The notes under the pieces: model-generated
Told to the model about the DNA's origin: nothing
Databases searched by the model: none
What the model saw: the letters and a program-made list of their open reading frames with translations, nothing else
Program-made: the position numbers and the translations under genes
Shown: positions 4,028 to 53,224 of the stretch, one piece after another
How positions within the stretch are numbered: position 1 is the first letter of the stretch
Layout: the number at the start of each line of letters is the position of its first letter
DNA from: a plasmid
Length of the DNA: 59,422 nt
Strand: one strand, 5' to 3'
Sequence record: NZ_LC586269.1

Positions 4028-4096
4028 GATGTTTAACGTTTGACATGAGGGGCGGCCAAGGACGATAGCCCTTGGACGTCCCCCTCGATGGAAGGG
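4028..4096 (-). other. attC of aac(6') cassette (aacA4-type 59-be, ...CCCTTCCATCGAGGGGGACGTCCAAGGGC...GTTAAAC)
   Basis: Palindromic 59-be between aac(6') stop and aadA1 start. Confidence 0.55.
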
Positions 4097-4651
4097 TTAG
4101 ACAGCACTGCGCGCTTGCTCGAACGCCTGACGTGTTTGAACCATGTATACGGCCGGTCCACCTGGGGTGTTTATGGTTCTTTGCGCCACAAAACCCGCCT
4201 TCTCGTAGCACCGGATTGCGCGTAAGTTGTTCGGCGACGGGTCCGTTTGGATCTTGGTTACCTCAGCGTCTTTGAACAGCATCTCAACGAGCGCGCGAAC
4301 GAGCTTGGTTCCCAAGCCCTTGCCCAGCTGCGATGGATTCGCCAGAGACTGGTCTATTCCGCGTACTCCTGGATCGGTTTCGTCTTCCCACCATCCGCCA
4401 CCGCTTCCGAGTGCAATGTACGACTGAGCGTACCCAATCGGTTCTTCATCCAGCATTGCGATGTAGGGAGTGACGGACTCTTTCGCCAGGGCGCTTGGTC
4501 GATATTGCTCCAGCACTTCAGCAAGTGTTGGACGTGTTTCTTCTCCGCCCCACCACTCAACGATGTGAGGCCGATTTAGCCAGTCATGGAGCATCGGAAG
4601 GTCGTGCTCGGTCATGAGGCGCAGCGTGACGAAGCTAATGGTAGTGGTCAT
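4097..4651 (-). CDS. aacA: Aminoglycoside 6'-N-acetyltransferase, AAC(6')-Ib/II family variant
   Basis: 184 aa; conserved AAC(6')-Ib/IIa blocks (HIVEWWGG, [28 protein letters not shown]); exact allele not assignable without a search. Confidence 0.85.
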
Positions 4652-4671
4652 GAGGACGGTCTTTGTGCTGC

Positions 4672-4730
4672 CTAACGCTTGAGTTAAGCCGCGCCGCGAA
4701 GCGGCGTCGGCTTGAACGAATTGTTAGACA
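4672..4730 (-). other. attC of aadA1 cassette, copy 2, joined to aac(6') cassette at core GTTAGGC
   Basis: Same 59-be as 3177-3235. Confidence 0.7.
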
Positions 4731-5522
4731 TTATTTGCCGACTACCTTGGTGATCTCGCCTTTCACGTAGTGAACAAATTCTTCCAACTGATCTGCGCGG
4801 GAGGCCAAGCGATCTTCTTCTTGTCCAAGATAAGCCTGTCTAGCTTCAAGTATGACGGGCTGATACTGGGCCGGCAGGCGCTCCATTGCCCAGTCGGCAG
4901 CGACATCCTTCGGCGCGATTTTGCCGGTTACTGCGCTGTACCAAATGCGGGACAACGTAAGCACTACATTTCGCTCATCGCCAGCCCAGTCGGGCGGCGA
5001 GTTCCATAGCGTTAAGGTTTCATTTAGCGCCTCAAATAGATCCTGTTCAGGAACCGGATCAAAGAGTTCCTCCGCCGCTGGACCTACCAAGGCAACGCTA
5101 TGTTCTCTTGCTTTTGTCAGCAAGATAGCCAGATCAATGTCGATCGTGGCTGGCTCGAAGATACCTGCAAGAATGTCATTGCGCTGCCATTCTCCAAATT
5201 GCAGTTCGCGCTTAGCTGGATAACGCCACGGAATGATGTCGTCGTGCACAACAATGGTGACTTCTACAGCGCGGAGAATCTCGCTCTCTCCAGGGGAAGC
5301 CGAAGTTTCCAAAAGGTCGTTGATCAAAGCTCGCCGCGTTGTTTCATCAAGCCTTACGGTCACCGTAACCAGCAAATCAATATCACTGTGTGGCTTCAGG
5401 CCGCCATCCACTGCGGAGCCGTACAAATGTACGGCCAGCAACGTCGGTTCGAGATGGCGCTCGATGACGCCAACTACCTCTGATAGTTGAGTCGATACTT
5501 CGGCGATCACCGCTTCCCTCAT
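4731..5522 (-). CDS. aadA1: AadA1, second identical copy
   Basis: 263 aa, identical protein and DNA to 3236..4027. Confidence 0.95.
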   Translation of the reverse strand: MREAVIAEVSTQLSEVVGVIERHLEPTLLAVHLYGSAVDGGLKPHSDIDLLVTVTVRLDETTRRALINDLLETSASPGESEILRAVEVTIVVHDDIIPWRYPAKRELQFGEWQRNDILAGIFEPATIDIDLAILLTKAREHSVALVGPAAEELFDPVPEQDLFEALNETLTLWNSPPDWAGDERNVVLTLSRIWYSAVTGKIAPKDVAADWAMERLPAQYQPVILEARQAYLGQEEDRLASRADQLEEFVHYVKGEITKVVGK

Positions 5523-5609
5523 GATGTTTAACGCCGAAGTTCAGCCGCCAGAACGGAGCGCAGCGGAGTGATGGTCGGCTGCAACTTCATGTTATGCCGC
5601 ATCTGCCTG
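5523..5609 (-). other. attC of blaVIM cassette
   Basis: Inverted-repeat element ending in GTTAAAC core upstream of aadA1. Confidence 0.55.
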
Positions 5610-7590
<1,981 letters not shown>

Positions 7591-9764: not shown

Positions 9765-12352
<2,588 letters not shown>

Positions 12353-12400: not shown

Positions 12401-12485
12401 TGTCAAAGAATGTGAAAGCGGACTCTATTCTGACGGCGCGGTGCGGCCTTGCCTGACATCCAGTTAGGGTATACCCTATCTGGAA
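12401..12485 (-). promoter_or_regulatory. res-site relic, inverted and ~70% similar to the res upstream of tnpR at 52.5 kb (shared ACTCTATTCTGACG ... CTGAC..CCAGTTAGGGTATACC)
   Basis: Manual comparison with 52500..52620. Confidence 0.4.
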
Positions 12486-12496
12486 CGCCGCAATCA

Positions 12497-12735
12497 GCGC
12501 CGAGGACCTGGTGGCGTGGATCCGTCCGGCGCGGCCGGCGAGCAGCTGGTGGATCCCGTCGACCTCGATCACGTCCAGGGGGAAGGCCATCGGCGCCGGC
12601 GGCGCCGAGGACCTGGTGCGGTGGATCCGTCCGGCGCGGCCGGCGAGCAGCTGGTGGATCCCGTCGACCTCGATCACGTCCAGGGGATGGCCATCGGCGC
12701 CGGCGGCGCCGAGCACCTGGTGCCGTGGACCCGCC
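12497..12735. repeat. Composite GC-rich repeat, locus A: ~2.3 tandem units of 105 bp
   Basis: Unit (GATGGCCATCGGCGCCGGCGGCGCCGAGGACCTGGTGCCGTGGATCCGTCCGGCGCGGCCGGCGAGCAGCTGGTGGATCCCGTCGACCTCGATCACGTCCAGGG) recurs at four other loci. Confidence 0.8.
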
Positions 12736-12754
12736 AGACGGGAGGGGAATAAAA

Positions 12755-12776
12755 AAGAGGGCGCAAGCGCCCTCTT
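12755..12776 (-). terminator. Hairpin AAGAGGGCGCAAGCGCCCTCTT; reads as a rho-independent terminator on the minus strand for the 13353..12797 operon
   Basis: Perfect stem with T-tract on the minus strand. Confidence 0.6.
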
Positions 12777-12796
12777 CTGGTTTCCCTCTAGTGTTA

Positions 12797-13081
12797 CTAG
12801 AAGGGAACCATATCGTCAGTCCTCAATGGAGCATCGTGCAATAACATCCCAAGCACGCTTTCAGGTACTACCTGACCTGCAAGCTCTTTCGAGCGTGCAC
12901 GCATGGCAGAACGATCCATGATGAACCGTGGATAGTATTGGAGGTTGCGGAAGCCTTGGGCTCGTGCCATCTCTTTCACTTCCTCTAACGAGGGTGCGAA
13001 GAACGTGCAGCCGAAGGTTCCCTCAACGCTGAAGGAGGTAAAGGAATACGCTGCAATGTGCTTCGTGTTCATCAGTTCCAC
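12797..13081 (-). CDS. Hypothetical protein (94 aa), second gene of a coupled pair
   Basis: ORF track; overlaps upstream gene by 10 nt; terminator downstream. Confidence 0.5.
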   Translation of the reverse strand: MELMNTKHIAAYSFTSFSVEGTFGCTFFAPSLEEVKEMARAQGFRNLQYYPRFIMDRSAMRARSKELAGQVVPESVLGMLLHDAPLRTDDMVPF

Positions 13082-13946: not shown

Positions 13947-14109
13947 ATGTCACCTTCAAGATCTTAAAGTATGAGCATTTCAGCCAGTCATAGTGCCCTT
14001 GGTACTGGCGCGTCAGATATTAGACGTCAATCCGCGTCGAGTCCACAGAACACGCGTTCCAGCGTGGTTTCAGTGGGTTCGCACTGCTACCTGGTTCTCG
14101 CTAATTAGG

Positions 14110-14396
14110 GGTGATCGCCTGCATGGCCTGGCCGGCGAGCAGCTGGTGGAGCCCGTTGACCTCGAGACGTCCTGCAGGTGGCCACCCGCACCTGGCCTAT
14201 CCGGGTCAAGGGCCGCGCGCCCGGCTCGTCGGAACGACTGCACCGTTCCGGCGAACGGACGCACGGGCGCAGCGCACCCTTGAACGCCTCTCCCCCTAAC
14301 AGCCTCCGCCGGGGAGTGTGGGGCAGCTCCTCCGCCCCGCGCTCCCGAGCCCTCGGCGGCAAGAGCGGGATGACAAGGGCAGAGCCCTTGGTGTGT
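14110..14396 (+). repeat. Composite repeat, locus B: one partial tandem unit, ~230-bp unique segment, terminal palindrome CAAGGGCAGAGCCCTTG
   Basis: Matches 50697..51098 and reverse complement of 25305..25520. Confidence 0.8.
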
Positions 14397-17435: not shown

Positions 17436-18423
17436 GCGCCTCGATCAGCGCGCTCAGATCACCCTGACCCGGTTCGATGTTCAGCAGTACGGCCAGGGCT
17501 TGGGCTCTCTTCGGGGTCAACATGAGAGAGGCGCTGCCGTTGGTTTCAGAATCTGAAACCACTGGGCCCGAAGAGGTGGCAGCCGTATTGGCGCTGTCAC
17601 TCGTTGAAGCGCTACCCGTGGTTGCCGCTCCATCCTCGCTGGAGGGCTGCTGGGTGGTGCCGGTTTCAGAATCTGAAACTGACCCCTGCCCTGCCCCCGG
17701 CGCCGGCGGCTCCGATTTCTTTTTTTCACGCGGCAGCAGCGCCTTGATGGCCGTCTGGATGCTTTCCCCTTTCTCCAGGCGCTTGCTCAGTTTCTTCAGG
17801 GTATCCGGCCCCATCTTGTCGAGCTTTTCCAGGTCGTAGATGATGTTGACGTCCCGGAATTCATCTAGCTTCGCAAACTCCTGTGCCTCGGGGCTCAGCT
17901 TGAAAACCTTCATATAGCGGCTCAGGCGCGACTTGTCCTTGATGCCGTGTACCGCAAGGATTTCCTCAGTGGTGAATCCGAATTCCTCCTTGTCCCGCTT
18001 GATCGAGCATGCGGTTTGCCAAACGGTCAGCCCCTGGCCGAGGACGTTGCCCGTCACATGGTCCATTCGCCGTTCGCGAACGCCACCTTTACTGATGATG
18101 CACGGCAGCAGCTGCACATCATCCGGAGCGTCTTCGGTCGCCCTCCAGCGGCATTCTCCCTCGATGATCTTGTGCTTCCCTGTTTCGTCTGCTGGTTCCA
18201 CCCAAAGAGCTTTTCGGATTCCGTAGTGGCGGCCCTCCTCGAGGGGGATCAGCGCACTCCTGCGGATGCCGGCGATGTGGGCGAGAGTTCTTTCGGCCTC
18301 CCAGTCATCACGGTCTTGCATCGGGTCCGGGTAGAGGTCGGAGCGGTGGATCAGCACGATCCGTTCACGTGGTTCGTTGTCCGACGATTTGCTGTTCAAC
18401 AGTTCGGCGATGGCATCACTCAT
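17401..18423 (-). CDS. parB: ParB-family partition protein; two copies of the TTTCAGAATCTGAAA palindrome lie inside its coding sequence
   Basis: 340 aa; ParB/Srx N-domain; overlaps parA by 4 nt. Confidence 0.8.
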   Translation of the reverse strand: MSDAIAELLNSKSSDNEPRERIVLIHRSDLYPDPMQDRDDWEAERTLAHIAGIRRSALIPLEEGRHYGIRKALWVEPADETGKHKIIEGECRWRATEDAPDDVQLLPCIISKGGVRERRMDHVTGNVLGQGLTVWQTACSIKRDKEEFGFTTEEILAVHGIKDKSRLSRYMKVFKLSPEAQEFAKLDEFRDVNIIYDLEKLDKMGPDTLKKLSKRLEKGESIQTAIKALLPREKKKSEPPAPGAGQGSVSDSETGTTQQPSSEDGAATTGSASTSDSANTAATSSGPVVSDSETNGSASLMLTPKRAQALAVLLNIEPGQGDLSALIEALAQALDELAEK

Positions 18424-21340: not shown

Positions 21341-21426
21341 AGAACACCCTCTACCTTCGTGCCCAAAAAACCTTCCGCGAAGCTTCAATCATCCACCGCC
21401 AGGAGGGAAGGGCGGCGCGTCCAAAA

Positions 21427-21705
21427 TTTCAGAATCTGAAATTTCCTACGGCCTTCCCTCCTAGCTCCAGAGTTTCAGAATCTGAAATTTGCGTATCAGC
21501 GCGTTCGCGCTTTCCCGCGGTTTCAGATTCTGAAATGGCCATGTGGCTGTCGCCTGGGGCGGTCGGCCAAATGGCTCCGGCTCTGCCGCTCTGCTGGGAC
21601 GCGATGAGAGTTTCAGAATCTGAAACTCCCGTGCGCCCCTGTCGTACCACCCCTTTGTCTTGTTCGAGTCGCCTGGGGAGGTGGCAAAAGTTTCAGAATC
21701 TGAAA
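21427..21705. promoter_or_regulatory. Five copies of 15-bp palindrome TTTCAGAATCTGAAA (21427, 21473, 21521, 21611, 21691): centromere-like parS candidate; two more copies at 17544 and 17664 inside parB
   Basis: Perfect palindromes with 40-90 bp spacing upstream of the T4CP-parAB operon. Confidence 0.6.
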
Positions 21706-21756
21706 CTTTTAGGCCACTCGCTAACCCTATGCGTCCTCTATGTTTAAGTCAAGGGG

Positions 21757-23140
21757 TTGTGCTACGATAAAATCATAGAGAAAAGCATAGAGAAAGAGCA
21801 TGAAAAAGCCCAAAGCAAAGAGCCAGGAGCGCCCCGACCAGGTGGTCGGGGTGACGCCAGCGTCTGCTGGCATCATGGCTCCGAAACGCATGCGTTTCTT
21901 TGCCGAAGAGCGCGCCGCTGCATGCAGCGTCGTGCCTGCCCTTTACGGGACAGGCATACACCCCCGGAGGAGCGCTCCGGGGGTGTGCAGGACTCCACGA
22001 CGCATGCGTCGTTCCGCCCTCTTTTTCTGCCTGCGCCCTGGACGGGCTTGTCCGAAAAATTCACCCGCGCGCCCGTCCACTCTCTTCGAGAGCGGACCCC
22101 CCAGCTTCCTGGGATTGCGCAACGCTTCGCCGCGGTCCTTCGTCCCTTGCTCAGCTGCTCCACCCCGGAACCCGGGGGGTCCGCTCTCGCCGACTTCAGC
22201 CCTGGCGGGCTTCAGTAGTCGAGCGCAGACGGGCGCGCGCTGCACGTCGCCTGATGCTTCGCACTCCAGGTCCCGGCCTGGACGGCCGTCCCTGGAGCAG
22301 ACCGGCATTCGGCCCTGGGGGGCCTCGGTGCCTTGCGAGCCGCGTGGGCGCGTCTCGCATCTGTCAGGCTTCTGTTTGTTTCGGCCCACCTCGCTGACGC
22401 GAACTGGGCCGCGCGCTGCCGGAACAGCTTTTGGCTGTTCCGGAGAGCGGGGCGCCTGCCGACCTCCGCTCGACGGCTCCGCCATCGCTGCGCATCGCAT
22501 TGCCCTCGCCGACCCATTCGGGCGGCTGGGCTCGCTCGCTTGCTCGGCGAAGCGTCGTCACCTGGGCCGAGTTGCTGGGCGCCCCCCGAAACAGCTTCTG
22601 GCTGTTTCGGAAAAGCCGGAACAGCTTTTGGCTGTTCCGAAGAGCAGGGGAGCTTGCCGACCTCCGCTCGACGACTCCGCCATCGCCGCGCATCGCATTG
22701 CCCTCGCCGACCCGTTCGGGCGGCTGGGCTCGCTCGCTTGCTCGGCGAAGCGTCGTCACCTGGGCCGAGTTGCCGGGCTCCCCCCGAAACAGCTTCTGGC
22801 TGTTTCGGAAAAGCTGGGCGCCGACTTTGCCTCGCTCGACGGCTTCGCCCTGCGCTTCACTTCGCATCGTCTGCGCCGGCCTTTACAGGCGGCTGACTCG
22901 CTCGCTCGCTTGGTCAAGCGTCGTTCCCTACACTGCGTGCCGGGGCGCCCAATCGAAACAGCTTGTGGCTGTTTCGAAAGAGCCGGAGAGCTTCGCCGCC
23001 CTGTGCAGCTATCGGCGACAAAAGCTCGTCGTAATCAAACACCTGTACCCGACTGCCCTGCGGAAACAGCTCGCGGCTGTTTCCGAGGGCCGGAACAGCT
23101 TCTGGCTGTTCGGAGTCGGGAGATGAGTAAGGAGCGAGAG
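21757..23140. repeat. 1.4-kb GC-rich noncoding region with ~7 palindromic iterons (CGRAACAGCTNNTGGCTGTTYCG) and two ~170-bp direct repeats (22440-22610, 22640-22800); candidate oriT or oriV
   Basis: Repeats seen directly; ORFs called here are frame artefacts. Confidence 0.6.
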
Positions 23141-23141
23141 A

Positions 23142-23900
23142 TTGACTGAGCGTCTAATGGACGGTTGGACCGGGTCCCGAGGTAAGGAGCGGAGCCGGGA
23201 AAAAATCAAAGAGGTCGTGCGGTGGCTCGCCCTCTTTGACTTCTCCAACCAATCGCTGTTGGCCAAGGCCTACGGCGCTGAGGTCAGAGGTCAGACTGTG
23301 TTCTTCAGACGCCTTGAGGAGTCTCGCCTAGTCGTTGTTACGAAGGCGCCGGGTCTCGACTGGAAAATCTACTCGCTGAGCCAGAGCGGGATGGAGATGG
23401 CAAGGGTGCTGCTGCCGCACCTGGATCTCAAGCGACGGCGAACGCCGTCGTGGATCCAGCTGGTCCATGCATTCTCCATCCAGGGGGCGATCATGGCGCG
23501 ACGGGATGAGATCAGCGGCTTCATGCCAGAAAAAGAGCTTTCCAAGATGAAGGCCAACCATTTGCCGGATGCTGTTCTCGAATACAAGAATGGGAAGAAG
23601 GTCGCTTTGGAAGTGGAGTTGAACCATAAAAGCGTTGGTCGGATTTACAATATCTTCCTGTCGCACCTCAAGAACATCCATAAAGGTCACTACGATCAGG
23701 TTCTCTATCTGTTTTCAAGCGAGCAGCTCAAGAACAACTACGAAGAGAAGTACAAGGTAAATATCTGGCCGATGTACATTATTAGCGAGCGAGGAAAGCT
23801 TGTTCTCAGCCCTGAACACCGTGGTGGATTCGATGCTGCCAAGATGGTTCATCCCACTGATAAGTTCAGGTTCATCTGCGAGGAGCTGTATTCATTATGA
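23142..23900 (+). CDS. Winged-helix plus PD-(D/E)xK-like nuclease-fold protein (252 aa); candidate DNA-processing protein
   Basis: Motif ...PDAVLEY...KKVALEVELNHK; iterons end 30 bp upstream; stop overlaps start of the VirB11-like gene (ATGA). Confidence 0.45.
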   Translation: MTERLMDGWTGSRGKERSREKIKEVVRWLALFDFSNQSLLAKAYGAEVRGQTVFFRRLEESRLVVVTKAPGLDWKIYSLSQSGMEMARVLLPHLDLKRRRTPSWIQLVHAFSIQGAIMARRDEISGFMPEKELSKMKANHLPDAVLEYKNGKKVALEVELNHKSVGRIYNIFLSHLKNIHKGHYDQVLYLFSSEQLKNNYEEKYKVNIWPMYIISERGKLVLSPEHRGGFDAAKMVHPTDKFRFICEELYSL

Positions 23901-25304: not shown

Positions 25305-26050
25305 CTCAACACCAAGGGCTCTGCCCTTGTCATCCCGCTCTTGCCGCCGAGGGCTCGGGAGCGCGGGGCGGAAGAACTGCCCCACACTCCCCGGCAGAGG
25401 CTGTCCAGGGGAGGGGGCTCAAGCGTACGCTCCGCCCGTGCGTCCGTTCGCCGGAACGGTGCAGCCGTTCCGACGAGCCGGGCGCGCGGCGCTTGACCCG
25501 GATAGGCCAGTCGAAGAGCACAGAGTGCGTGACCTGGTGCCGCGGATCCGTCCGGCGCGGCCGGCGAGCAGCTGGTGGAGCCCGTCGACCTCGATCACAT
25601 CCAGGGGATGGCCACCGGCGCCAAGGACCTGGTGCCGCGGATCCGTCTGGCGCGGCCGGCGAGCAGCTGGTGGAGCCCATCGACCTCGATCACGTCCAGG
25701 GGATGGCCATCGGCGCCGGCGGCGCCGAGGACCTGGTGCCGTGGATCCGTCCGGCCTGGCCGGCGAGCAGCTGGTGGAGCACGTCGCCCTCGATCACGCC
25801 CAGGGGATGGCCATCGGCGCCGGCGGCGCCGAGCACCTGGTGGCGTGGATCCGTCCGGCGTGGCCGGCGAGCAGTTGGTGGAGCGCGTCGACCTCGATCA
25901 CTTCCAGGGGATGGCCACCGGCGCCGGCGGCGCCAAGGACCTGGTGCCGCGGATCCGTCTGGCGCGGCCGGCGAGCAGCTGGTGGAGCCCGTCGACCTCG
26001 ATCACGTCCAGGGGATGGCCATCGGCGCCGGCGGCGCCGAGGACCTGGTG
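25305..26050 (-). repeat. Composite repeat, locus C (inverted): palindrome, ~230-bp unique part and ~5 tandem units of 96/105 bp
   Basis: Tandem periodicity measured between GGATCCGT landmarks (96 and 105 bp). Confidence 0.85.
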
Positions 26051-26195
26051 TATTAGAAGGGGAGGGGGGCTATCAGAATAGATAGTTTTTAACTTCGAAA
26101 GGAGTTGTCGCCTTGTCGTAGCGGCACTGTGCCGCTATAAAAATGCCTTTACTCAGGCGCCCATCTCCTACTGGAGACCCTGCCGGCGTCAGATC

Positions 26196-44022: not shown

Positions 44023-44530
44023 CCTTAATCAGTCCGCTTTAAAAAGAATCAGAAGAGGGGGTGTCGCTTCGCTCCACCCGATAATGCCTCGGCAAGCCGA
44101 GAGGCTATCTATATGCAGGGGTTCCCCCTGCAGAAAAGCAGGAAATGCCGCCCCGTCTTCGCGCTACGCGCGCGGGGTCCCCCAAGCGAGCCTGCCTCTT
44201 CCGTGGCAACGCTCGCTGGGCTAAAGGGATGAACATTCCTCGGAGTTCTGTCGGTACAGCAAGTGCTCCACTGCCGCTGCAGTGGTCACTCCCGCTGTGC
44301 GCACGGTCGCTACGCTCCTAGTAATCAGTGAAGGGGGTGGGGAGCGCTGGTTTCCCACTCTACGCGCCCCTACGGTGCCGACAGCGCCTGTCGTAAGGCC
44401 AGCCCATAGGGGCGGGGGCGGGAGTCTTCGTCTCCGCTGGTGGGGCCTTCCAGGGGCATTGCCGGCAATGCCCTGGTGATCCTGATCCTTTCCCTCTCCT
44501 GTTGTTCTGTGCCGCGCTCGCTGCGCGCCT

Positions 44531-44745
44531 TTTCGCACGCCCTTCAAGTTGGCCGGGCCCGGCCGACCGGCAAGGGGCGCTGCGCTGGAAATCCTCACCC
44601 GTTCCCCTCGCTGCGCTCGGCGCCTGCGGCTTCCGGTTTCCCCCTGGCCAGTCGCCCTCTTGGGCCAGGCCTCTCCGGGCTCACGGCGAAAAGATCACTC
44701 AGCGAAGCAAACACCACCACAGCAACATCACCAGGAGACCCCTGA
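44531..44745 (+). promoter_or_regulatory. Conserved ~215-bp leader, copy 1, upstream of the DUF3560 gene
   Basis: ~80% nucleotide identity to 47994..48212 but no shared reading frame, so conservation is at the DNA/RNA level. Confidence 0.55.
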
Positions 44746-45652
44746 CATGCATCACGAAGAGCAAAAGCAACAGCCAGAGCAAGAGCCGGCTCAAGAAGCA
44801 TCTAGCAAAGCAACCCGGGCAGGGCAGGAAGTGAGCCCCGAGCAAGTTGGCCGCGAGTTGAACTGGTACGAACAGAAGCTCGCCGATCGGAGGGAACGCC
44901 TCCAGGAACGTGCCGCGAAGATCTCAGACGAGAGTGGCGTGCTCTACCAGCGAGCGAAGACCATGGCCAGCGCTATCCCTTTCGGGCAACCGATCCTGGT
45001 AGGGCATCACAGTGAAGGTCGGGACCGTCGCTACCGCGACCGGATCCACAGCACTTACGGCAAGGCGTTCGCGTTGCAGGACAAGGCGAAGCATTACGAG
45101 CAGAAGGCCGCGGCCGTGGGGACCGGGGGAATCTCGAGCGACGACCCGGACGCCATCGAGAAGCTCCAGGCCGAGTTGCAGCAGCTGGAGGTGAACCAGC
45201 AATGCATGAAGGTCGCCAACCAGGTGATCCGGAAGCACAAGACCCTCGAGGCTCGACACGCCGCCTTGGTTGCGCAGGGTTTCAGCGAGAGCCTGGCCAG
45301 CCAGATCCTGACGCCCGACTGCTTCGGCGGCATCGGCTTCGCTTCCTACGCCCTGTCGAACAACAACGCCAATATCCGGCGGATACGTCAGCGCATCGAG
45401 GACCTGCAGAAGCGCCGGGAAGCCTCCGACGTGGAGGTTGAGGCGGATGGCTACACGTACCGGGAGGACGTCGATGAGAACCGGGTGATGTTCATCTTCC
45501 CGGGCAAGCCGGATGAGCCAACCCGGCAGTTGCTGCGACAGAACGCGTTCAAGTGGAGTCCACGCCGGGGCGCTTGGGTACGCCAGTTGAACAACGCCGG
45601 CCGTTGGGCTGCCCGCCAAGTCCGCAAGTCACTGGGCGAGGCCCTCGAATAG
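44746..45652 (+). CDS. DUF3560-like plasmid protein (start at MHHEEQKQQ)
   Basis: Motifs VGHHSEGRDRRYRDR ... FKWSPRRGAWVR; track ORF 44549.. over-extended into the leader. Confidence 0.55.
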
Positions 45653-45699
45653 CTACCGGCCATGCCCCGGCCCTTGCCGGGGCTTCGGTCTCAACTAGT

Positions 45700-45842
45700 C
45701 GCCGTCGCCGAGGCCTGATGGCGCGGATCAGTCCGGCGCGGCCGGCGAGCACCTGGTAGAGCAGTCGACCTCGATCACGCCCAGGGGATGGCCACCGACG
45801 TCGGCGGCGCCGAGCACCTGGTGCCGTGGATCCGTCCGGGGC
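45700..45842 (+). repeat. Composite repeat, locus D (1.3 tandem units only)
   Basis: Same 105-bp unit. Confidence 0.7.
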
Positions 45843-45876
45843 CTATCTACTCGACAAACGGTCGGATATTGATTTC

Positions 45877-45910
45877 ATAATAATAAGAATAATGCTATTC
45901 TTATTATTAT
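45877..45910. promoter_or_regulatory. AT-rich perfect inverted repeat ATAATAATAAGAATAA-TGC-TATTCTTATTATTAT: kfrA operator candidate
   Basis: 25 bp upstream of kfrA start. Confidence 0.5.
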
Positions 45911-45934
45911 CTTATCCCCACTTCCGGAGGGCTT

Positions 45935-47017
45935 ATGTCGGAACATGAAGGTAACGACCAGGTCGCAGACGTTCGGGCTCGTGTTTTCCGGGAGGCCGAT
46001 CGCCTCTATGAAGAACTGGGGCGTGAGCGCTTCCCGCAGGTGGAAGCGGTGCGCCGGGCTGCCCGGGCGGACATGAACACGGTCACACGGGTCATGAAAG
46101 AATGGCGGCATCTGCAAACCGCCAAACCTGAGCCGGTCCACCTGGAACTGCCGCCTGAACTGCACAGGGAGGCACTTACCCTGGGCTCCGCCTTGTGGAG
46201 TGCTGCCACGGAAATGGCCAATGCGAGCCTGCGAAAGGCCGAGGCAGACTGGGACCAGGAGAGGGCGGATGCTGAATCGACCCGGATAGAACTGTCGCAG
46301 TTGTACGAAGAGCAGCAAGGAGACCTGGAGCGGCTGCGCGAGGACAAACAGGCCTTACAGCAGGCGTTCGAGGAGCAGGTTCTAGTGATCGATGGGCTGC
46401 GCCAGAGTTTGGCCCAGCAGACGTCCCGCGCAGAGTCGGCCGAGGCCAGGACCGAGGAAATCACTCGCCGCGTCGAGGACCAGAAAATCGAGCTGCAACG
46501 CGCCCGGGACGAGTTGTCCGAGGTGCGGAACGAGCTGGTTTCGGCCCGTAAGATCCATCAGACCGAACTGGACCAGATCAAGGCTGTGGCCGCCCAGGAG
46601 ATCGACAAGGCCAAGGCGGAACTCGCTGAGGCGAAGGGCAGGGCGGAGGCCCAGCGCGACGATCTGGCAGCCCGTGTCGAGGACCTACAGCATCGTCTTG
46701 ATACGGCGATGAAGGACCTCTATCGCTTGCAGGCAGCAGAAGAGGCCGCGAGTGAACAGCGCAAGCGCGCTGCGACCGAGGCTCATGCTCAGGCGGAACG
46801 CTTCACCCGGGTACAGGGCGAACGTGACGCCGCCCGCAAAGAAGCCCAGGTGGCTGGACTACGAGCCGCGCGCGCCGAAGGTGAACTTGATAGTCTTCGG
46901 GAGAGCAACGCTCAGCTGCTAGACCGCCTCGGTAGCGCCGCAGTCCAACAGCCCGCGAAGATCAAGGCCAAGACGCCCCGCAAGCCCGCCAAGGGCGATT
47001 CCGAGAGCAAGGAGTAA
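45935..47017 (+). CDS. kfrA: KfrA-like protein (N-terminal DNA-binding domain plus long Ala/Glu-rich coiled coil)
   Basis: 360 aa. Confidence 0.7.
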   Translation: MSEHEGNDQVADVRARVFREADRLYEELGRERFPQVEAVRRAARADMNTVTRVMKEWRHLQTAKPEPVHLELPPELHREALTLGSALWSAATEMANASLRKAEADWDQERADAESTRIELSQLYEEQQGDLERLREDKQALQQAFEEQVLVIDGLRQSLAQQTSRAESAEARTEEITRRVEDQKIELQRARDELSEVRNELVSARKIHQTELDQIKAVAAQEIDKAKAELAEAKGRAEAQRDDLAARVEDLQHRLDTAMKDLYRLQAAEEAASEQRKRAATEAHAQAERFTRVQGERDAARKEAQVAGLRAARAEGELDSLRESNAQLLDRLGSAAVQQPAKIKAKTPRKPAKGDSESKE

Positions 47018-47021
47018 CGCT

Positions 47022-47438
47022 ATGAGCATTTCGAACAATGTTGTGTCGAGATCGATCCTGCAGGCTGCTCGCTTCATTGATGAGTGGCAGGAGGCTGATC
47101 TCGATCACCTGACCGAAAGCCAGATCCGAGCTGCTGTTGCATTCGCCGTCAGGCTTCACGAAGGCTTTCAAGAAAGCGTGCTACAGCGGCTCGTGAACGA
47201 GTCCTGTCACGACGAGTATCTCGAGTACAAAGGATGGGAGGAGGCGTTGCTCAATGCGGACGGTCGCGTTGCGAGCAATCCGTTTGCCGAGTTTGGTTGG
47301 TGGCATCGTATCGCTAACGTAATGCTGTCCACCGCTGACAACAACGTCGGCAGTTCCGGCGGTTCCTGGGGCGGTAACACTCATTATCGCCTCATGGATA
47401 TATTCAAAAGAAATTTCCAACAGTGGTATGAAGATTAA
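47022..47438 (+). CDS. Hypothetical protein (138 aa)
   Basis: ORF track. Confidence 0.4.
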   Translation: MSISNNVVSRSILQAARFIDEWQEADLDHLTESQIRAAVAFAVRLHEGFQESVLQRLVNESCHDEYLEYKGWEEALLNADGRVASNPFAEFGWWHRIANVMLSTADNNVGSSGGSWGGNTHYRLMDIFKRNFQQWYED

Positions 47439-47760
47439 TTGTAATATATTGCGGAGTTGTCCTGTGGATGTGAAAGTTGATTCGTATGTCGTCGATTTTG
47501 AATACAAGATTATTGCTGGAACCCAAGAGTATCTTGGAAAGAGTCGGGCGGCTTTCCCGGCTGCCGTAGTTCCAGTGAGTCTTTCCGACGAAGGAGCCCG
47601 CAAGAGGATCGCCGAAATCATTAATGGAAAGATGATCGAGATTCTGCCGCAAGTCATCGCTGATAATAATATTGACGTTGACTCTATCTCCGGCAGGGTC
47701 TCTTTTAATGTCGGAAACCTCAAGACCACACGGGTGAGCACCGTCGTTTCTTTGGGATAG
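47428..47760 (+). CDS. Hypothetical protein (110 aa), lower GC
   Basis: ORF track. Confidence 0.4.
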   Translation: MKINCNILRSCPVDVKVDSYVVDFEYKIIAGTQEYLGKSRAAFPAAVVPVSLSDEGARKRIAEIINGKMIEILPQVIADNNIDVDSISGRVSFNVGNLKTTRVSTVVSLG

Positions 47761-47993
47761 GTAGCCGAGGCCTGCGGCCCGGGCTGTCGTGCTACGCATC
47801 GAGCCGCCGGCGGCGTCTCGCCCCTTCGGGCTTCCATCCTTCCCTCCCTGCGGTCGGCTCTCGCTTCCGCTCCCACCAGGCTCTGCCTGGCACTCGCTGC
47901 GCGCTCCGCGCGCCCGGGCTTGCGCCCGCGTTGTCCCTTTCCAGCCCCTCCGGTGAGCGTCGCGGCCGAACTTCGGCGCTTCCCTGGATGCCC

Positions 47994-48212
47994 TTTCGCA
48001 CGCCCTAAACGTTGACCTGGCCCGGCCGGCCAGCAAGGGTCGCTGCGCTAGAAATCCTCACCCGTTCCCCTCGCTGCGCTCGGCGCATGCGGCTTCCGGT
48101 TTCTCCCCTTGCCGCCCGACCTCTACGGCCAGGCCCACTCCGGGCTCACGGCGAAAGGTCACTCAGCGAAGCAAGTTCAACCACCACAGCAACATCCCAG
48201 GAGAAAACCGAA
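47994..48212 (+). promoter_or_regulatory. Conserved leader, copy 2, upstream of the ParB-nuclease gene
   Basis: Paralogue of 44531..44745. Confidence 0.55.
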
Positions 48213-50186
48213 ATGAACAACAACACTCAGAAGCAACAGCAAAAGCCGGCTCAAGGAGCATCTAGCAAAGCAAGGGGGAAGGCCAAGAGCGCTGCCGCGT
48301 CGAAACTGCCGGGCGGGGTGTGGAAAGAGATTCCGCTCAAGAAGCTCCGTCTGTGGGCGAAGAACGTGCGGGTATCTGCCGCCAGTGCCGAGGCCGGGGA
48401 TGCCCTGGAAGCGAGCCTGCAATCCCAGGGGCTGCTCCAGAACCTCGTCGTCATCGAGGCCGAGGATGGTTTCTACGACGTTGCCGCCGGCGGTCGCCGC
48501 TTGGCGAAGCTGCATGCCCTGGTCGAGAAGAAGAAGCTCAGCGCCGACACCCTCATCATGTGCCAGATCGTGGACGAGAGCACCGGGCTTACTGCGAGCC
48601 TGTCCGAGAACGTCCAGCGCGAAGCCATGCACCCGGCCGACGAGTTCATCGCGTTCCAGGAACTGTCCAACGCCGGCATTCCTGTTGCTGATATCGCCGC
48701 AAGCTTCGGCGTCACCCCGGTGGTGGTGAAGCAACGCCTCAAGCTGGCCAACCTCTCCCCAAGGCTGATCCAGGCCTACCGCGATGGAGAGGCGAACATG
48801 GAGCAGTTGCAGGCCCTGGCCATCTGCGACAACCACGAAATTCAGGAAGCGGCATTCTTCGACGTACAGTCGTGGATGCGTCAACCCTACGAACTGCGCC
48901 GGGCGGTGACCAAGGGAGAAACCCTGGTGCGCCATGAACCCCTGGCGAGATTCGTCGGACTGGAAGCCTATGAGCAAGCCGGCGGCGCAGTACGCCGCGA
49001 CCTGTTCGGCAACGCGGAGGACTCCTACATCACGGACCTGCCGCTCCTCGACAAGCTCGCTATCGAGAAGCTGGAGCCTATCGCCGAGCCGATCCGGGCG
49101 GAGGGCTGGGGGTGGGTTGAAGTCATGCCCCGCTTCAACGCCTCAGAACTGTACAACTTCGGACGGATTCACCCTCTGCCCGTCGAGTTGACCCCGGAAC
49201 AACAGGCCGAGCGTGCCAGTCTCAAGGCCGCTCTCGATCAGTTGGAAACCGAGATCGAAAACGCCGTCGAGGCCGAGGATTTCGACACCATCGAGCGCCT
49301 GGAGCAGGAGCAAGGGGAAGCTGAAGATCGTCTCCACGCCCTGGAGAGCGGAGCGGTAAGGTCCTACGACCCGGAGGCGATGACCAAGGCGGGATGCATC
49401 ATCAGTGTTGGGCGCTCCGGAGACGTGGACGTCTGGCGTGCCCTGGTCAAGCCCGAAGACAGGGCTGCCGTCGAAGGGGCCGAGAACCAGGGGACGGACG
49501 GCCAGAGCACCGACGACGCACCGAAGGAAAAAACGGCGCGCCTGTCGGACCGCATGGGCCGCCAGTTGACCGCTCACAAGACCGCAGCCCTGCAAGTCGA
49601 ACTGGCCCGAAATTCAAAAGTGGCCCTGGTTGCAGTGGTCCACAAGCTGGCCATCCAGATCATCCACAGCGACCACTCCCCGCGCTTCGCCGTACCGGTC
49701 GGCGTCAGCGTCTCACAGCGCGGCGGCCTGACCGAATACGCTTCCGACCTCAAGGACTCGGCCGTCCTCCAGGCACTCGAAGACATGCGTGGGCAGTGGC
49801 GGGAGCGACTGCCGAGCGAACCCCGCGAACTGTTCGCCGCCCTCCTCGATCTGTCGATGGCTGACCTCAACGACCTGCTCGCCTTCTGCGTTGCCACCGG
49901 CGTCGACGTCGTGAGCGACAAGGGCACCGATGGCCAGAGCGGTGCGGACGTCCTGGCCCAAACCCTCGAACTGGATATGCGCAACTGGTGGAAGCCGACC
50001 GCCGACGCCTATTTCCGTGAGGTGCCCAAGGGGTTGACCCTGGAAGCCATGCAGACCATCGCACCGGCAGAAGTGGCCCGCCTCTCCACCCTCAAGAAGA
50101 ACGACCTGGCCAACGAGGCCGGACGCCTGGCCGAAGGGTCGAACTGGCTGCCGGCGATCCTCGCTAGCCACGAGCCGAAGGCGTAA
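48213..50186 (+). CDS. ParB/Srx-domain (ParB-like nuclease) protein, 657 aa, leading-region type
   Basis: ParB N-domain ...LLQNLVVIEAEDGFYDVAAGGRRLAKLHAL...; track ORF 48012.. over-extended. Confidence 0.7.
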   Translation: MNNNTQKQQQKPAQGASSKARGKAKSAAASKLPGGVWKEIPLKKLRLWAKNVRVSAASAEAGDALEASLQSQGLLQNLVVIEAEDGFYDVAAGGRRLAKLHALVEKKKLSADTLIMCQIVDESTGLTASLSENVQREAMHPADEFIAFQELSNAGIPVADIAASFGVTPVVVKQRLKLANLSPRLIQAYRDGEANMEQLQALAICDNHEIQEAAFFDVQSWMRQPYELRRAVTKGETLVRHEPLARFVGLEAYEQAGGAVRRDLFGNAEDSYITDLPLLDKLAIEKLEPIAEPIRAEGWGWVEVMPRFNASELYNFGRIHPLPVELTPEQQAERASLKAALDQLETEIENAVEAEDFDTIERLEQEQGEAEDRLHALESGAVRSYDPEAMTKAGCIISVGRSGDVDVWRALVKPEDRAAVEGAENQGTDGQSTDDAPKEKTARLSDRMGRQLTAHKTAALQVELARNSKVALVAVVHKLAIQIIHSDHSPRFAVPVGVSVSQRGGLTEYASDLKDSAVLQALEDMRGQWRERLPSEPRELFAALLDLSMADLNDLLAFCVATGVDVVSDKGTDGQSGADVLAQTLELDMRNWWKPTADAYFREVPKGLTLEAMQTIAPAEVARLSTLKKNDLANEAGRLAEGSNWLPAILASHEPKA

Positions 50187-50195
50187 GGGGGTCAC

Positions 50196-50540
50196 ATGAA
50201 AAAGCGTGGAGCGCCACTGATGTGGCGCTACTCGCTCCGTTGGTGCCTGCCGCATAGACCCTGCCCAGGCCGACGAGAGCTGATGGTCAAATACACCGTG
50301 CCCGGGGCGCCTATCCCCACCAAGATTCGCGAGTTATGGAAGGAGTACCAGGGCCAGGGATACGGCGTCTGCATCGACTTCCCCCCCTCCAAGGCCGTCC
50401 AGCGCTGGAGTGCTGAGCGCAAAGCCGAGGCTCGCCGGCGAAAGATGGTGAAGCGGATCGAGAAGACCGCCCCACTCTTCGCCCAGGAACTGATCGCCCG
50501 CGAGTTCCAGGAGCGAGGCGCCTACTTCAACGGCGAGTAG
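50196..50540 (+). CDS. Hypothetical protein (start uncertain)
   Basis: ORF track. Confidence 0.3.
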   Translation: MKKRGAPLMWRYSLRWCLPHRPCPGRRELMVKYTVPGAPIPTKIRELWKEYQGQGYGVCIDFPPSKAVQRWSAERKAEARRRKMVKRIEKTAPLFAQELIAREFQERGAYFNGE

Positions 50541-50696
50541 TCCCCCAGGCCCGCACCCGCGGGCCTTTTCTATGGCCGCGCGAGAGCCACGCCCTGCGCG
50601 GAACAAGCCCAACGTCGAACTTCGTTCGACTAGCCCTTGCCCCTTCGGGGTCGCTTACGCGATTCCTTGCCCTCCCCCAAACCGCTAGGTGCGATC

Positions 50697-51098
50697 GTCG
50701 AGCACCTGGTGCCGCGGATCCGTCCGGCACTGCCGGCGAGCAGCTGGTGGAGCCCGTCGACCTCGAGACGTCCTGCAGGTGGCCATCGGCGCCGGCGGCG
50801 CCGAGCACCTGGTGCGGTGGATCCGTCCGGTACGGCCGGCGCGCAGTTGGTGGAGCCCGCCGACCTCGAGACGTCCTGCAGGTGGCCATCAGCGCCGGCG
50901 TTTCCGGGTCAAGCGCCGCGCGCCCGGCTCGTCGGAACGGCTGCATCGTTCCGGCGAACGGACGCACGGGCAGAGCGCACGCTTGATCCCCCTCCCCTGG
51001 ACAGCCTCCGCCGGGGAGTGTGGGGCAGCTCTTCCGCCCCGCGCTCCCGAGCCCTCGGCGGCAAGAGCGGGATGACAAGGGCAGAGCCCTTGGTGTTA
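50697..51098 (+). repeat. Composite repeat, locus F: 2 tandem units, unique part and palindrome
   Basis: Matches loci B and C. Confidence 0.85.
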
Positions 51099-51188
51099 CC
51101 ATCCCCGAACCGCGCCAGGGGCAGGGATGGGAAGGATTCCCCAAGTGGCTCTGCCCTTTGGCGCCGGTCTTCTTAGGAGGGATAGCCG

Positions 51189-51539
51189 ATGATCTTCTTT
51201 CGCAACAAATCGCTGTTCCACGACGTTGAGCGCGAAATGTTGGCCACCATCAAAAAGCAGGCGGGCATGAACTACGTGCTGTATCGCCTTTTCGATATCG
51301 CGTCGAAGGTTGGCGCAGTGGGAGTCTTTACCCTGCTTCTATGTTGGATGCTGCTTGAATTCATCCTGCAGGGGTTCTTGGGGGCTGGCCCAACAATCAC
51401 AAAGCAGTATGGTGACCTGTTGGCACCCATTATCGTGGGGCTTGGAGTTCTCGGCGTCGTTGCCCAAATCTTCTATCAGGTCCAGCTCGACAAGCTGTTA
51501 CCCCTGGTGCGGGACGCAGCGCGCAGCGTCAGTCACTGA
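51189..51539 (+). CDS. Small membrane protein (116 aa)
   Basis: ORF track; hydrophobic segments. Confidence 0.4.
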
Positions 51540-51551
51540 GCGCGTTCAAGA

Positions 51552-51578
51552 CAAAAAAGGCGCCTAGGCGCCTTTTTT
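51552..51578. terminator. Bidirectional rho-independent terminator A6-GGCGCCTAGGCGCC-T6
   Basis: Perfect palindrome flanked by A and T tracts. Confidence 0.7.
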
Positions 51579-51810
51579 GTTTCAGTAGGATGGGGCTCAG
51601 CCGCTGGCTTTCATGATGAAGCTCACCAGCCCAGCCCAGCCGCCTGGATACTTCTCGTCTGCAACGATCCGCACCAGGTCCTCGGCGAGCCCTTCCATTC
51701 CTTCTTTGCTGTTGCCGAATGTGCGGATGTACCGCTCGGCCAGATCGTTCAGTTCGTAGCGGAGATCCTGCAGCTCTTCGCGGTTGACTTCTTGCATGCG
51801 CGCCTTCCTC

Positions 51811-52431
51811 TCATTCCGGCGTTGCCTGGTTACGAATCTTGATGACCGTTGTCGGCGAGCACTGTGCCAGTCGAGCGGTGGCTCGAATACCTAGTCCAGC
51901 AGATAGGAGTTCGCGAACCCTCTTGTGCAGCTGCTGGTCAACGCCGCGGCCTCGGTAGGCCCCCGCCTCCTTGGCTTTACGAATCCCCTGTGCCTGGCGG
52001 GTTCGTCGCTGTTCGTAGTCCTTGCGGGCAATAGCCGCCATCATCTCGACCATCAGTTCGTTGATCGCAGCAAGCATGCGGCTGGTGAACTGGTCCCCTT
52101 GGGTTGGCTTCATTCCAAGGTGGCTGGTGGGCAGGTCCAGGGCGACGATTCGGAGCCCGATGGAGTCGATTGCCCCGCGCAGAGTCTTCCACTCCCCTTC
52201 TGGCAACCGAGTCAGGCGATCGATGCTCTCCACCAGCAGCACGTCTCCCTCCCTCGCGTCCTTGAGCAACCTCTTCAGCGCCGGTCGATCGGCCTTGGCG
52301 CCGCTCACGTTGTCGACATACTCCGCAGCGATGACCTTACCGTGCTCGAGGGCGAAAGAATCCAGTTCTGCCCTCGCCCGGGTTGCATCCTGTTCTGCGG
52401 TCGAAGCACGCAGATATGCTCGAACGAACAT
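51811..52431 (-). CDS. Serine recombinase (resolvase/invertase family), divergent from tnpR
   Basis: 206 aa; catalytic Ser in YLRASTAEQ. Confidence 0.8.
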   Translation of the reverse strand: MFVRAYLRASTAEQDATRARAELDSFALEHGKVIAAEYVDNVSGAKADRPALKRLLKDAREGDVLLVESIDRLTRLPEGEWKTLRGAIDSIGLRIVALDLPTSHLGMKPTQGDQFTSRMLAAINELMVEMMAAIARKDYEQRRTRQAQGIRKAKEAGAYRGRGVDQQLHKRVRELLSAGLGIRATARLAQCSPTTVIKIRNQATPE

Positions 52432-52479
52432 GTTGGTGTTCCATTATGAGTGTCCGCTAAAGTGTGTGCCATTTTAGGT

Positions 52480-52660
52480 GTTCACTTCAACGGAGGAGAG
52501 AATTTTCCCGACGTCCTAGGGTGTGCCTAGTGAGGTATACCCTAACTTGGCGTCAGACCATCCGGCGCTAAATCGTCAGAATAGAGTTGCCTTCCGAATT
52601 GATTGACATACGCCGTCAAGGGTCATAGATTTCTTCCTGACACATTTCCCTCAGGAGGAT
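52480..52660 (+). promoter_or_regulatory. res site region of the Tn21-family transposon (includes TTAGGGTATACC motifs and tnpR promoter)
   Basis: Position upstream of tnpR; related inverted relic at 12401-12485. Confidence 0.5.
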
Positions 52661-52663
52661 ACC

Positions 52664-53224
52664 TTGCACGGTCAGCGCATCGGTTACGTCCGCGTCAGCA
52701 GCTTCGACCAGAACCCAGAACGGCAGCTCGAACAGATCCAGGTGGATAAAGTGTTCACCGACAAGGCGTCGGGCAAGGACACACGGCGGCCCGAACTGGA
52801 ACGGCTGCTCGCCTTCGTGCGCGAAGGCGACACGGTCGTGGTGCACAGCATGGATCGTCTGGCGCGCAACCTCGACGACCTGCGCCGCCTGGTGCAGGGC
52901 CTCACCCAGCGCGGCGTACGCATCGAGTTCCTTAAGGAGCATTTGACCTTCACCGGCGAGGACTCGCCGATGGCGAACCTGATGCTGTCGGTAATGGGCG
53001 CGTTCGCCGAGTTCGAACGCGCCTTGATCCGCGAGCGGCAGCGCGAGGGCATCGCGCTCGCCAAGCAGCGCGGGGCCTACCGTGGCAGGAAGAAATCCCT
53101 GTCGTCTGAGCGTATTGCCGAACTGCGCCAACGTGTCGAGGCTGGCGAGCAAAAGACCAAGCTGGCTCGTGAATTCGGAATCAGTCGCGAAACCCTGTAT
53201 CAATACTTGAGAACGGATCAGTAA
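52664..53224 (+). CDS. tnpR: Tn21/Tn501-family resolvase TnpR
   Basis: 186 aa; very close to the recalled Tn21 TnpR. Confidence 0.95.

Follow-up and report, generated by a model that had tools for sequence, protein, structure and literature searches.

Promoters that act on single-stranded (ss) DNA drive the first minutes of plasmid establishment, serving anti-restriction, anti-CRISPR and SOS-control functions, and have been shown experimentally in Escherichia coli IncF and IncI plasmids (PMC12672017; PMC13478746; bioRxiv 10.64898/2026.01.09.698686). Frpo-like sequences have been predicted in many other conjugative elements (Samuel et al.; PMC11541004). Here we describe two related leaders in a plasmid of Pseudomonas aeruginosa (sequence record NZ_LC586269.1; the whole stretch of 59,422 nucleotides that was analysed is referred to as the window), one upstream of a DUF3560 gene and the other upstream of a ParB-like gene, which are probably promoters of this kind.

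In pESBL and F, RNA sequencing and 5' rapid amplification of cDNA ends led Wen et al. (2025) to distinguish ssDNA promoters of three classes: class 1 is Frpo/ssi, class 2 lies before klcA and ardA, and class 3 lies before the M.EcoGIX methylase operon (PMC12672017). Frpo, ssiD and ssi1-3 are the class 1 promoters of F and ColIb-P9 (Masai and Arai, 1997, as cited in PMC11541004). Class 2 promoters have been placed upstream of ardB/klcA and ardA (PMC12672017; bioRxiv 10.64898/2026.01.09.698686; PMC13478746). One of them, ssp2 of F, is also a physical roadblock to complementary-strand conversion, and Frpo transcripts prime DNA synthesis (bioRxiv 10.64898/2026.01.09.698686).

An earlier note on this DNA had described the two leaders (copy A, 44531–44745; copy B, 47994–48212) as about 80% identical, with unconserved reading frames, similar ribosome-binding site (RBS) contexts and similar first codons. 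It had proposed that they are either hairpin promoters active on incoming ssDNA or a shared repressor operator, with fold prediction and a search of other plasmids as checks. The description of the pair holds. In a global alignment, 189 of 222 columns are identical (85.1%) and 10 are gap columns, with indels of 1, 1, 1, 4 and 1 nt that break every reading frame. The similarity starts upstream of the bounds given above, at ~44513 and ~47975, runs through the RBS and continues in frame into coding DNA to ~44815 and ~48275, so that the peptide PAQ(E/G)ASSKA is common to the start of the DUF3560 and ParB-like proteins; the noncoding part is conserved to the same degree as the coding part, with its frame broken. 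Of the two strings quoted in the earlier note, the first has one mismatch between the copies (TGCGCTGG versus TGCGCTAG) and the second has one indel and one mismatch (GAAAAGATCAC versus GAAAGGTCAC). A repeat scan, nhmmer (E 8e-76 and 8e-80) and the covariance model introduced below all find these two copies only in the window. The search of other plasmids was productive: leader homologues occur in 216 PLSDB plasmids, and the A/B repeat therefore goes far beyond chance. The hairpins and the translation signals that follow them are:

44500–44727, minus strand: leader or hairpin A, a long imperfect stem-loop of the template strand, upstream of the DUF3560 gene
44733–44737 and 44747–44749, plus strand: Shine-Dalgarno sequence AGGAG and ATG of the DUF3560 gene, read from the sequence
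47964–48182, minus strand: leader or hairpin B, a long stem-loop upstream of the ParB-like gene
48199–48203 and 48213–48215, plus strand: Shine-Dalgarno sequence AGGAG and ATG of the ParB-like gene

When the leaders were folded as DNA and compared with 200 shuffles, the minus strands gave the long imperfect hairpins that the earlier note had envisaged. For copy A the minus strand reaches -63.9 kcal/mol (z -2.58; 3 of 200 shuffles as good) versus -51.5 kcal/mol (z -0.76) for the plus strand, and for copy B the values are -58.0 kcal/mol (z -2.53; 1 of 200 shuffles as good) versus -44.8 kcal/mol (z -0.82). Hairpin A ends at 44727, with AGGAG from 44733, and hairpin B at 48182, with AGGAG from 48199. 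Counting Watson-Crick pairs only, the complementarity of the arms of copy B exceeds that of shuffles with a z of 5.6. A re-scoring of the arms with wobble pairs allowed was dropped because it is confounded by base composition (shuffle means differ between the schemes), and counts of mismatch types were used instead. In the arms of 48 long-stem elements of the family, 251 oppositions are G·T on the minus strand versus 61 that are G·T on the plus strand (~4:1). In 104 of 109 distinct elements, folding favours the complement of the mRNA, with a mean gain of 7.6 kcal/mol in stability.

Each hairpin is capped by a conserved core of ~85 nt, for which we built a covariance model, R1:

44567–44651, minus strand: core of hairpin A (R1 70.8 bits, E 4e-18)
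44579–44585, minus strand (the plus strand reads GCTGCGC): GCGCAGC mini-hairpin with a GNA triloop, a side branch of core A
48030–48115, minus strand: core of hairpin B (R1 68.3 bits, E 2e-17)

Core A consists of the stems P1 (CAGGGG/CCCCTTG) and P2 (GAAA/TTTC), the invariant blocks ACCGGAAGCCGCA and GAACGGGTGAGGAT, and a variable hairpin. In the sense orientation, elements of the family are laid out as a 5' arm of 60–100 nt, (G)TCAAGGG, GCTNCGC, GAA-ATCCTCACCCGTTC, the variable hairpin, TGCGGCTTCCGG-TTTC, CCCTTGAC and the 3' arm, which in every hairpin of what we call the long class is followed by an RBS and a start codon. Covariation was found in P1, P2 and P4. In an alignment of 42 cores, examined against 500 shuffles and with slid-partner controls, 92.8% of cells are paired versus 81.1% in shuffles and 23–50% with slid partners; 81 cells have changed on both sides versus 22.4 expected, and none of the 500 shuffles reaches the observed values. 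The wobbles in this alignment are again asymmetric, with 24 G·U on the minus strand versus 2 A·C (wobble on the plus strand).

The side branch deserves separate mention. GCGNAGC is an extraordinarily stable DNA mini-hairpin (PMC13037366), and d(GNA) loops are closed by C:G (PMC3201870). The minus strand of the core keeps exactly the G, the A and the closing C:G fixed and the N free: in columns 82–88 of alignment A2 the N is C in 14, T in 14, A in 13 and G in 1 sequence, and the other six positions are nearly invariant. In copies A and B alike, the variable hairpin carries a second GC-GCA-GC at its tip. The mini-hairpin has been known as a motif of physico-chemical interest and from phage origins; we know of no description of a role for it inside ssDNA promoters, nor, to our knowledge, is its sense-strand complement, GCTNCGC, a known stable RNA loop. 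Together, the strand stability, the wobble asymmetry, the covariation and GCGNAGC indicate that the folded molecule is the template strand, most simply as DNA, and thus point to a structure that belongs to the template DNA strand and not to the mRNA.

R1 was built without any F sequence and searched with filters off. In F (NC_002483) it nevertheless finds a core at 52,694–52,786 (43.9 bits, E 3.5e-10), with a score similar to that of the full-length homologous Xanthomonas copies (44–45.5 bits); nhmmer gives the same F site an E of 0.0014. The corresponding F hairpin (52,640–52,840) belongs to a leading region whose genes share one strand with it, precedes the operon that runs from DUF1281 to a DNA methylase, and ends at GAGAGGAG-N7-ATG. 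As in the window, the long hairpin leads up to an RBS and ATG and is capped by an apical core, in which TCCTCACCCGGTC and CTGCGGCTTC are both found; TTGNNN stands at the core base, with TAACGT at 15 nt (CAACGT at 16 nt in copy B of the window). It differs in its arms, which have no sequence likeness to those of the window (plain BLAST finds only 13-nt blocks, E 0.27), in its better -10 box, and in its Enterobacteriaceae hosts (4,495 PLSDB plasmids at ≥95% identity). Given its position and the order of its genes, and because it heads the only F operon with a DNA methylase, it is most likely the published class 3 promoter, ssp3 (PMC12672017).

The F hairpin upstream of yfgB/ardB, which we take as ssp2, contains CAAGGGTACGCTTCGCC, TCACCCGGTCC and GCTGCGGCTTCC, ordered as in the window leaders. 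Both it and the pESBL class 2 elements have the colinear series CAAGGG-ACGCTTCGCC, TCACCCGGTCC, GCTGCGGCTTCC and then CCCTG, in a long GC-rich hairpin with TTGCAT-N15-TAAGAT on the non-template arm and a bulged template arm. In ssp2 an insertion of ~115 nt takes the place of the short variable hairpin and the P2 region differs, so that R1 gives only 14.4 bits (E 0.19). The class 1 promoters, Frpo/ssi, share the proposed principle, in that a leading-region hairpin of the template strand rebuilds both promoter boxes, -35 and -10, until synthesis of the complementary strand silences it, but they have no sequence or core likeness to the window leaders: R1 has no match at the F Frpo loci, and BLAST of F 57.8–66.5 kb against both leaders gives an E of 0.26 at best. 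With plain BLAST, neither the F leading region nor the two F hairpins that bear the core give more than 11–17-nt blocks in the leaders (E 0.1 or worse), and the connection to F therefore needs a profile or covariance model. This blindness of BLAST may be the reason why publications treat classes 2 and 3 as unrelated and confined to IncF and IncI plasmids. In the searchable literature we found no description of a capping core that is common to Proteobacteria and links published classes 2 and 3, and neither the core strings nor ssDNA promoters of Pseudomonas or PromA plasmids were found there. A weak core-like match in F, TCCTCGCCAGTTC...GGCTGCGGC upstream of sopA (L129 1570–1612, F 49,569–49,611; nhmmer E 0.76; labels with L are our own), is probably due to chance.

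The 216 PLSDB plasmids with leader homologues include 120 from Xanthomonas and 33 from Pseudomonas, further carriers being broad-host-range PromA plasmids (such as pSB102 and pTer331) and plasmids of Ralstonia, Denitratisoma, Nitrosomonas and Burkholderia. An exact-pattern scan for the core (ATCCTCRCCCGKTC...TGCGGCYTCCGG) extends this to at least 120 contigs of alpha-, beta- and gammaproteobacteria, and the capped hairpin was also found in Burkholderia, Ralstonia and Bordetella elements. The lineages comprise the window/PromA type, L009/L022, the Xanthomonas L033/L098/L103, the Burkholderia L036/L094/L097/L102, L101, and L111/L126. Arms of different lineages are unrelated in sequence, yet always pair; of 109 distinct elements, 46 have a z for arm complementarity above 4. 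Wherever annotated plasmids carry a long-class copy, the genes that follow it on the same strand are those of a leading region (ardC-type, ssb, DUF3560, kleA, methylase and primase genes). A crude test for a downstream Shine-Dalgarno sequence and open reading frame (ORF), positive for 18 of 46 long elements versus 14 of 46 in the reversed control, was uninformative, the rule being too strict for weak RBSs and spurious ORFs arising in GC-rich DNA, and it was not used. A scan of 40000–53000 with Rfam 15 found no family at the leaders, the sole hit (43809–43997, E 0.38) being at chance level.

The core also occurs in a second, short class of element, marked by a separate hairpin module upstream, by a conserved CTTCCAGCCAAA that follows TTGAC, and by the lack of an adjacent start codon. 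Short-class copies are often opposite in orientation to the leading-region genes, and one copy in pSB102 lies in the presumed oriT region. Loci of this class are:

L003, 6676–6759 and 11074–11157
L004, 6335–6431 and 21137–21233
L007, 24936–25026
many Bordetella/Achromobacter chromosomal loci, for example L013, L018 and L019

On the single-stranded template, the complement of the 5' arm would take the place of the non-template strand in a promoter duplex. Promoter-like boxes read on that arm, and the start predicted from them for copy A, are:

44568–44573, minus strand: -35-like TTGCCG of copy A, paired in the stem (mean probability of being unpaired, P(unpaired), 0.17)
44546–44551, minus strand: -10-like CAACTT of copy A, spacer 16, P(unpaired) 0.53
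48031–48036, minus strand: -35-like TTGCTG of copy B, fully paired, P(unpaired) 0.04
48009–48014, minus strand: -10-like CAACGT of copy B, spacer 16, P(unpaired) 0.40
F, hairpin upstream of yfgB, taken as ssp2: TTGCAT, spacer 15, TAAGAT
F, 52.7-kb hairpin: TTGCAT, spacer 15, TAACGT
pSB102: TTGGCC, spacer 16, TACCGT
44678–44686, plus strand: predicted start region of the DUF3560 mRNA, taken from the template-arm positions that pair with the non-template arm 5–10 nt after the -10-like hexamer

In the folds the -35 box is paired (P(unpaired) 0.02–0.17) and the -10-like hexamer is half open (0.40–0.53). At the base of the core, where the -35 box is situated, TTGNNN persists even in elements in which the rest of P1 covaries (CAATTG/CAATTG in L128, CAATGG/CCATTG in L017). 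CAACTT of copy A is homologous to TACCGT of PromA and other relatives, and in the consensus structure of twelve window-type hairpins an internal loop of 8 nt takes in the A and the last T of the hexamer. We searched 29 long elements, after de-duplication, for hexamers 15–18 nt after TTGNNN, with the expectation taken from shuffles: TAnnnT is found on the non-template arm in nine (0.7 expected) and on the sense arm in none, and the looser nAnnnT on the non-template arm in 16 (3.4 expected) and on the sense arm in only two. A scan of 43800–48300 for sigma-70-type promoters in duplex DNA found none. The predicted starts, at ~44680 and ~48148, would give leaders of ~65 nt; since these would not include the 5' arm, the RBSs would be free.

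Where a relaxase is recognised, the polarity of transfer that gene order suggests agrees with the folding strand. In such relatives the leading-region genes point toward oriT and the relaxase operon, both in PromA/MOBP plasmids (mobC-traS) and in the Denitratisoma MOBF plasmid (type IV coupling protein-mobF). The usual rule is that the relaxase gene enters last (PMC11541004), and under it the template strand is the transferred strand in those relatives. In the window, Pfam showed no relaxase; NCBIfam matched ORF 23142–23900 to the MobC 'replication-relaxation' family (E 5e-19), but below threshold. The hairpin CCGGAACAGCTTTTGGCTGTTCCGG is repeated seven times at 22418–23123, just upstream of this ORF, and the two are from their sequence a candidate for oriT plus an atypical relaxase. 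If 22.4–23.1 kb is oriT and the relaxase enters last, the minus strand would be the one transferred, which we suggest with reserve. We had also considered ATCCTCACCCG, which resembles the IncP nick-region motif ATCCTG/CCCGG, as a nick site; the idea was dropped, the core occurring several times per plasmid, in both orientations, and in both MOBF and MOBP plasmids.

We think it probable, then, that each leader is an ssDNA promoter of the ssp2/ssp3 type, as one of the two proposals of the earlier note would have it; the template-strand folds, the covariation, the wobble asymmetry, the homology to F and the box positions support that proposal. On this model the plasmid would enter the recipient single-stranded, and its minus strand, the template for the DUF3560, kfrA and ParB-like genes, would fold into a hairpin of ~220 nt that is nucleated and capped by the stable conserved core. 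The stem would rebuild a duplex -35 box (TTGCCG or TTGCTG) just below the core, with the -10-like hexamer (CAACTT or CAACGT) 16 nt further on, where the arm that stands for the non-template strand is mismatched and partly open. The sigma-70 RNA polymerase of the host would start inside the stem and read out along the single strand, giving an mRNA that lacks the 5' arm and has its RBS free, until complementary-strand synthesis removes the hairpin and turns the promoter off. By analogy with F, a further effect of the hairpin may be to delay synthesis of the complementary strand or to provide a primer.

Several observations weigh against this interpretation. The boxes of the window are poor: the -10-like hexamers have no first T, so that only A(-11) and T(-7) match, and the -35 boxes agree with TTGACA at three of six positions, from which the promoters would be weak or would need structure or a factor. 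Across the family, nAnnnT at the expected spacing on the non-template arm is found in only 16 of 29 lineages. The arms of copy A, scored by Watson-Crick pairs only, reach 21 versus 20 ± 3 in shuffles, which is not significant, and the case for hairpin A depends on wobble pairs and on its homology to copy B. Part of the minus-strand G·T excess could have arisen by biased mutation, this strand often being single-stranded. The equation of the F 52.7-kb hairpin with ssp3 comes from position and gene order only. No relaxase or oriT is recognised for this plasmid type, which MOB-suite calls non-mobilizable, and if oriT is at 22.4–23.1 kb the leader copies are 15–30 kb away from it in backbone terms. 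Finally, the short class has the same core in different surroundings and oriented the other way, so that the core alone does not define a promoter; it is therefore a more general single-strand module, with promoter function belonging to the long-hairpin class.

The evidence from structure, strand and conservation would be the same if the hairpins acted on incoming ssDNA as priming signals (ssi/primosome assembly) or as barriers that pause synthesis, the genes being transcribed from elsewhere, and the roadblock activity of ssp2, the priming by Frpo transcripts, the weak boxes and the presence of the core at sites without a following gene all suit such a role. As for priming sites, which PriA, DnaG or a plasmid primase would recognise, the carrier plasmids have different primases or none, which argues for a host factor. 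Even so, we consider it rather unlikely as the sole explanation: a long-class hairpin always ends just 5' of an RBS and start codon, TTGNNN is kept while its pairing partners change, the -10-like enrichment is on one arm only, and the F relatives are proven promoters; moreover, priming or pausing is compatible with promoter activity. The position directly upstream of a start codon, together with a stem that covers the RBS and ATG in the Xanthomonas elements L033, L098 and L103, could instead mean that the leaders are structured 5' untranslated regions, with translational or attenuation control and promoters further upstream. This is improbable, given that shuffled sequences fold about as well as the sense strand (z -0.8), that wobbles favour the antisense strand 4:1 in the arms and 24:2 in the core, that neither an Rfam match nor an upstream promoter was found, and that GCTNCGC is not among the stable RNA loops we know of.

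Strand asymmetry and covariation would be explained equally well if the minus strand were transcribed into a structured antisense or small RNA. We nevertheless regard this as very improbable: 43800–48300 holds no promoter-like site on the minus strand, a terminator-like hairpin at 44791–44772 would stop minus-strand transcripts before leader A, Rfam has no match, GCGNAGC is a motif of DNA-specific stability, and the F relatives act as DNA. There is as little probability, to our mind, in the other proposal of the earlier note, a regulatory region of duplex DNA with a shared operator for KorA, KorB or KfrA, or in the simple duplication of a gene 5' end. That two copies stand before two operons of one regulon-like region, and that the first ~22 codons are duplicated too, would fit. 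A duplex operator, however, needs neither covarying arms 100 nt apart nor strand-specific wobbles; the leaders have none of the obvious palindromic operators of the plasmid, the element is common to plasmids with unrelated regulators, and none of the computational tests spoke in favour of an operator. Against mere duplication, the noncoding part is as conserved as the coding part in spite of its broken frame.

If the leaders are ssDNA promoters, the mechanism probably also works in Pseudomonas resistance plasmids and in many environmental plasmids. A further idea, which we put forward tentatively and hold less likely than its converse, is that the core (P1-P2-P4, the variable hairpin and the GCGNAGC side branch) is an undescribed, deeply conserved ssDNA module that unites the 'class 2' and 'class 3' promoters with hundreds of alpha-, beta- and gammaproteobacterial plasmids and integrative elements, and that its invariant unpaired blocks, ACCGGAAGCCGCA and GAACGGGTGAGGAT, might dock a conserved host protein (for example RNA polymerase alpha or sigma, SSB or UvrD) by which these weak promoters become active on ssDNA. 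R1 offers a searchable signature for early-expressed operons and for the transferred strand in unannotated plasmids, the family provides natural covariation data on what an ssDNA promoter requires, and the hairpin is a concrete target for blocking plasmid establishment. Two such elements are present here in a carbapenemase-bearing plasmid of the IncP-11 type, whose relatives have anti-CRISPR genes between the copies.

The genes associated with the leaders are:

44747–45652, plus strand: DUF3560 gene (Pfam E 1e-36), of which the first ~22 codons (to ~44815) fall within the repeat cassette
45935–47017, plus strand: kfrA-like gene (KfrA_N, E 5e-14), between the two leader-headed units
48213–50186, plus strand: ParB-like gene of 657 amino acids with ParB_N and HTH_ParB matches, its first ~21 codons common with the DUF3560 gene

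The DUF3560 and kfrA labels that these genes had been given earlier stand, whereas 'nuclease' in the label of the ParB-like gene is not supported: the match of the 657-residue protein to ParB_N (22.5 bits) is below the cut-off of 26.3, and its RefSeq relatives are annotated as 'ParB/RepB/Spo0J family'. An ssb gene, also named earlier, was not seen in the window. The shared first ~22 codons (44747–44815 and 48213–48275), which are Q/N/K-rich and then encode PAQxASSKA, are found too in a third protein of plasmid RP1-1 and in PromA ArdC-type proteins (L003 3043-; L001 7673-). N-terminal codons common to several proteins imply that the hairpin, the 5' leader and these codons move jointly as a cassette. 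Directly 5' of kfrA, at 45875–45925, is an AT-rich palindrome, TTTCATAATAATAAGAATAATGCTATTCTTATTATTATC, where KfrA probably regulates its own gene, the palindrome serving as operator and promoter.

The plasmid is of the IncP-11 type, with RP1-1 (LC700336) and pBR164 as near relatives, and has genes for a type IV secretion system, a coupling protein, ParA, KorB-like proteins and a topoisomerase. RP1-1 and pBR164 have a third leader copy, heading yet another gene, and in close relatives acrE1, acrF3, acrF, an SOS-response peptidase gene and radC lie between leader copies, all on the strand of the leaders. The accessory load (1892–7590, 10009–11940 and 53227–56193) comprises a class 1 integron (intI1), a gene of the metallo-beta-lactamase fold, sul1, mer genes including merA, and a Tn3-family transposase; it is inserted between the backbone resolvase and a set of 104-bp repeats, and contains two aadA cassettes (3236–4027 and 4731–5522) that are 100% identical.

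These repeats of ~104 bp form an intergenic family (12467–12802, 14095–14196, 25493–26130, 45705–45839 and 50696–50900), with six in tandem at 25.5–26.1 kb and others just 3' of the DUF3560 gene and of the ParB-like operon; whether they are a centromere, iteron-like or regulator sites is raised here as a question only. Adjoining a repeat in each case are three hairpins, at 14203–14286 (plus), 50906–50989 (plus) and 25416–25499 (minus), that have the P1 stem of the core (TCAAGGG...CCCTTGA) and the GCGCAGC mini-hairpin with a different interior. They are weak R1 matches (E 0.004–0.06), and their folding strand is opposite to that of leaders A and B. A palindrome, TTTCAGAATCTGAAA, occurs five times (17529–17698 and 21412–21707), before and inside the operon with the coupling-protein, parA and korB-like genes, and is probably the operator of a global regulator of the plasmid. 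In-frame tandem repeats of 78/156 bp (39816–41051) lie inside the gene for a YadA-like adhesin of 910 amino acids, which adjoins the type IV secretion system genes.

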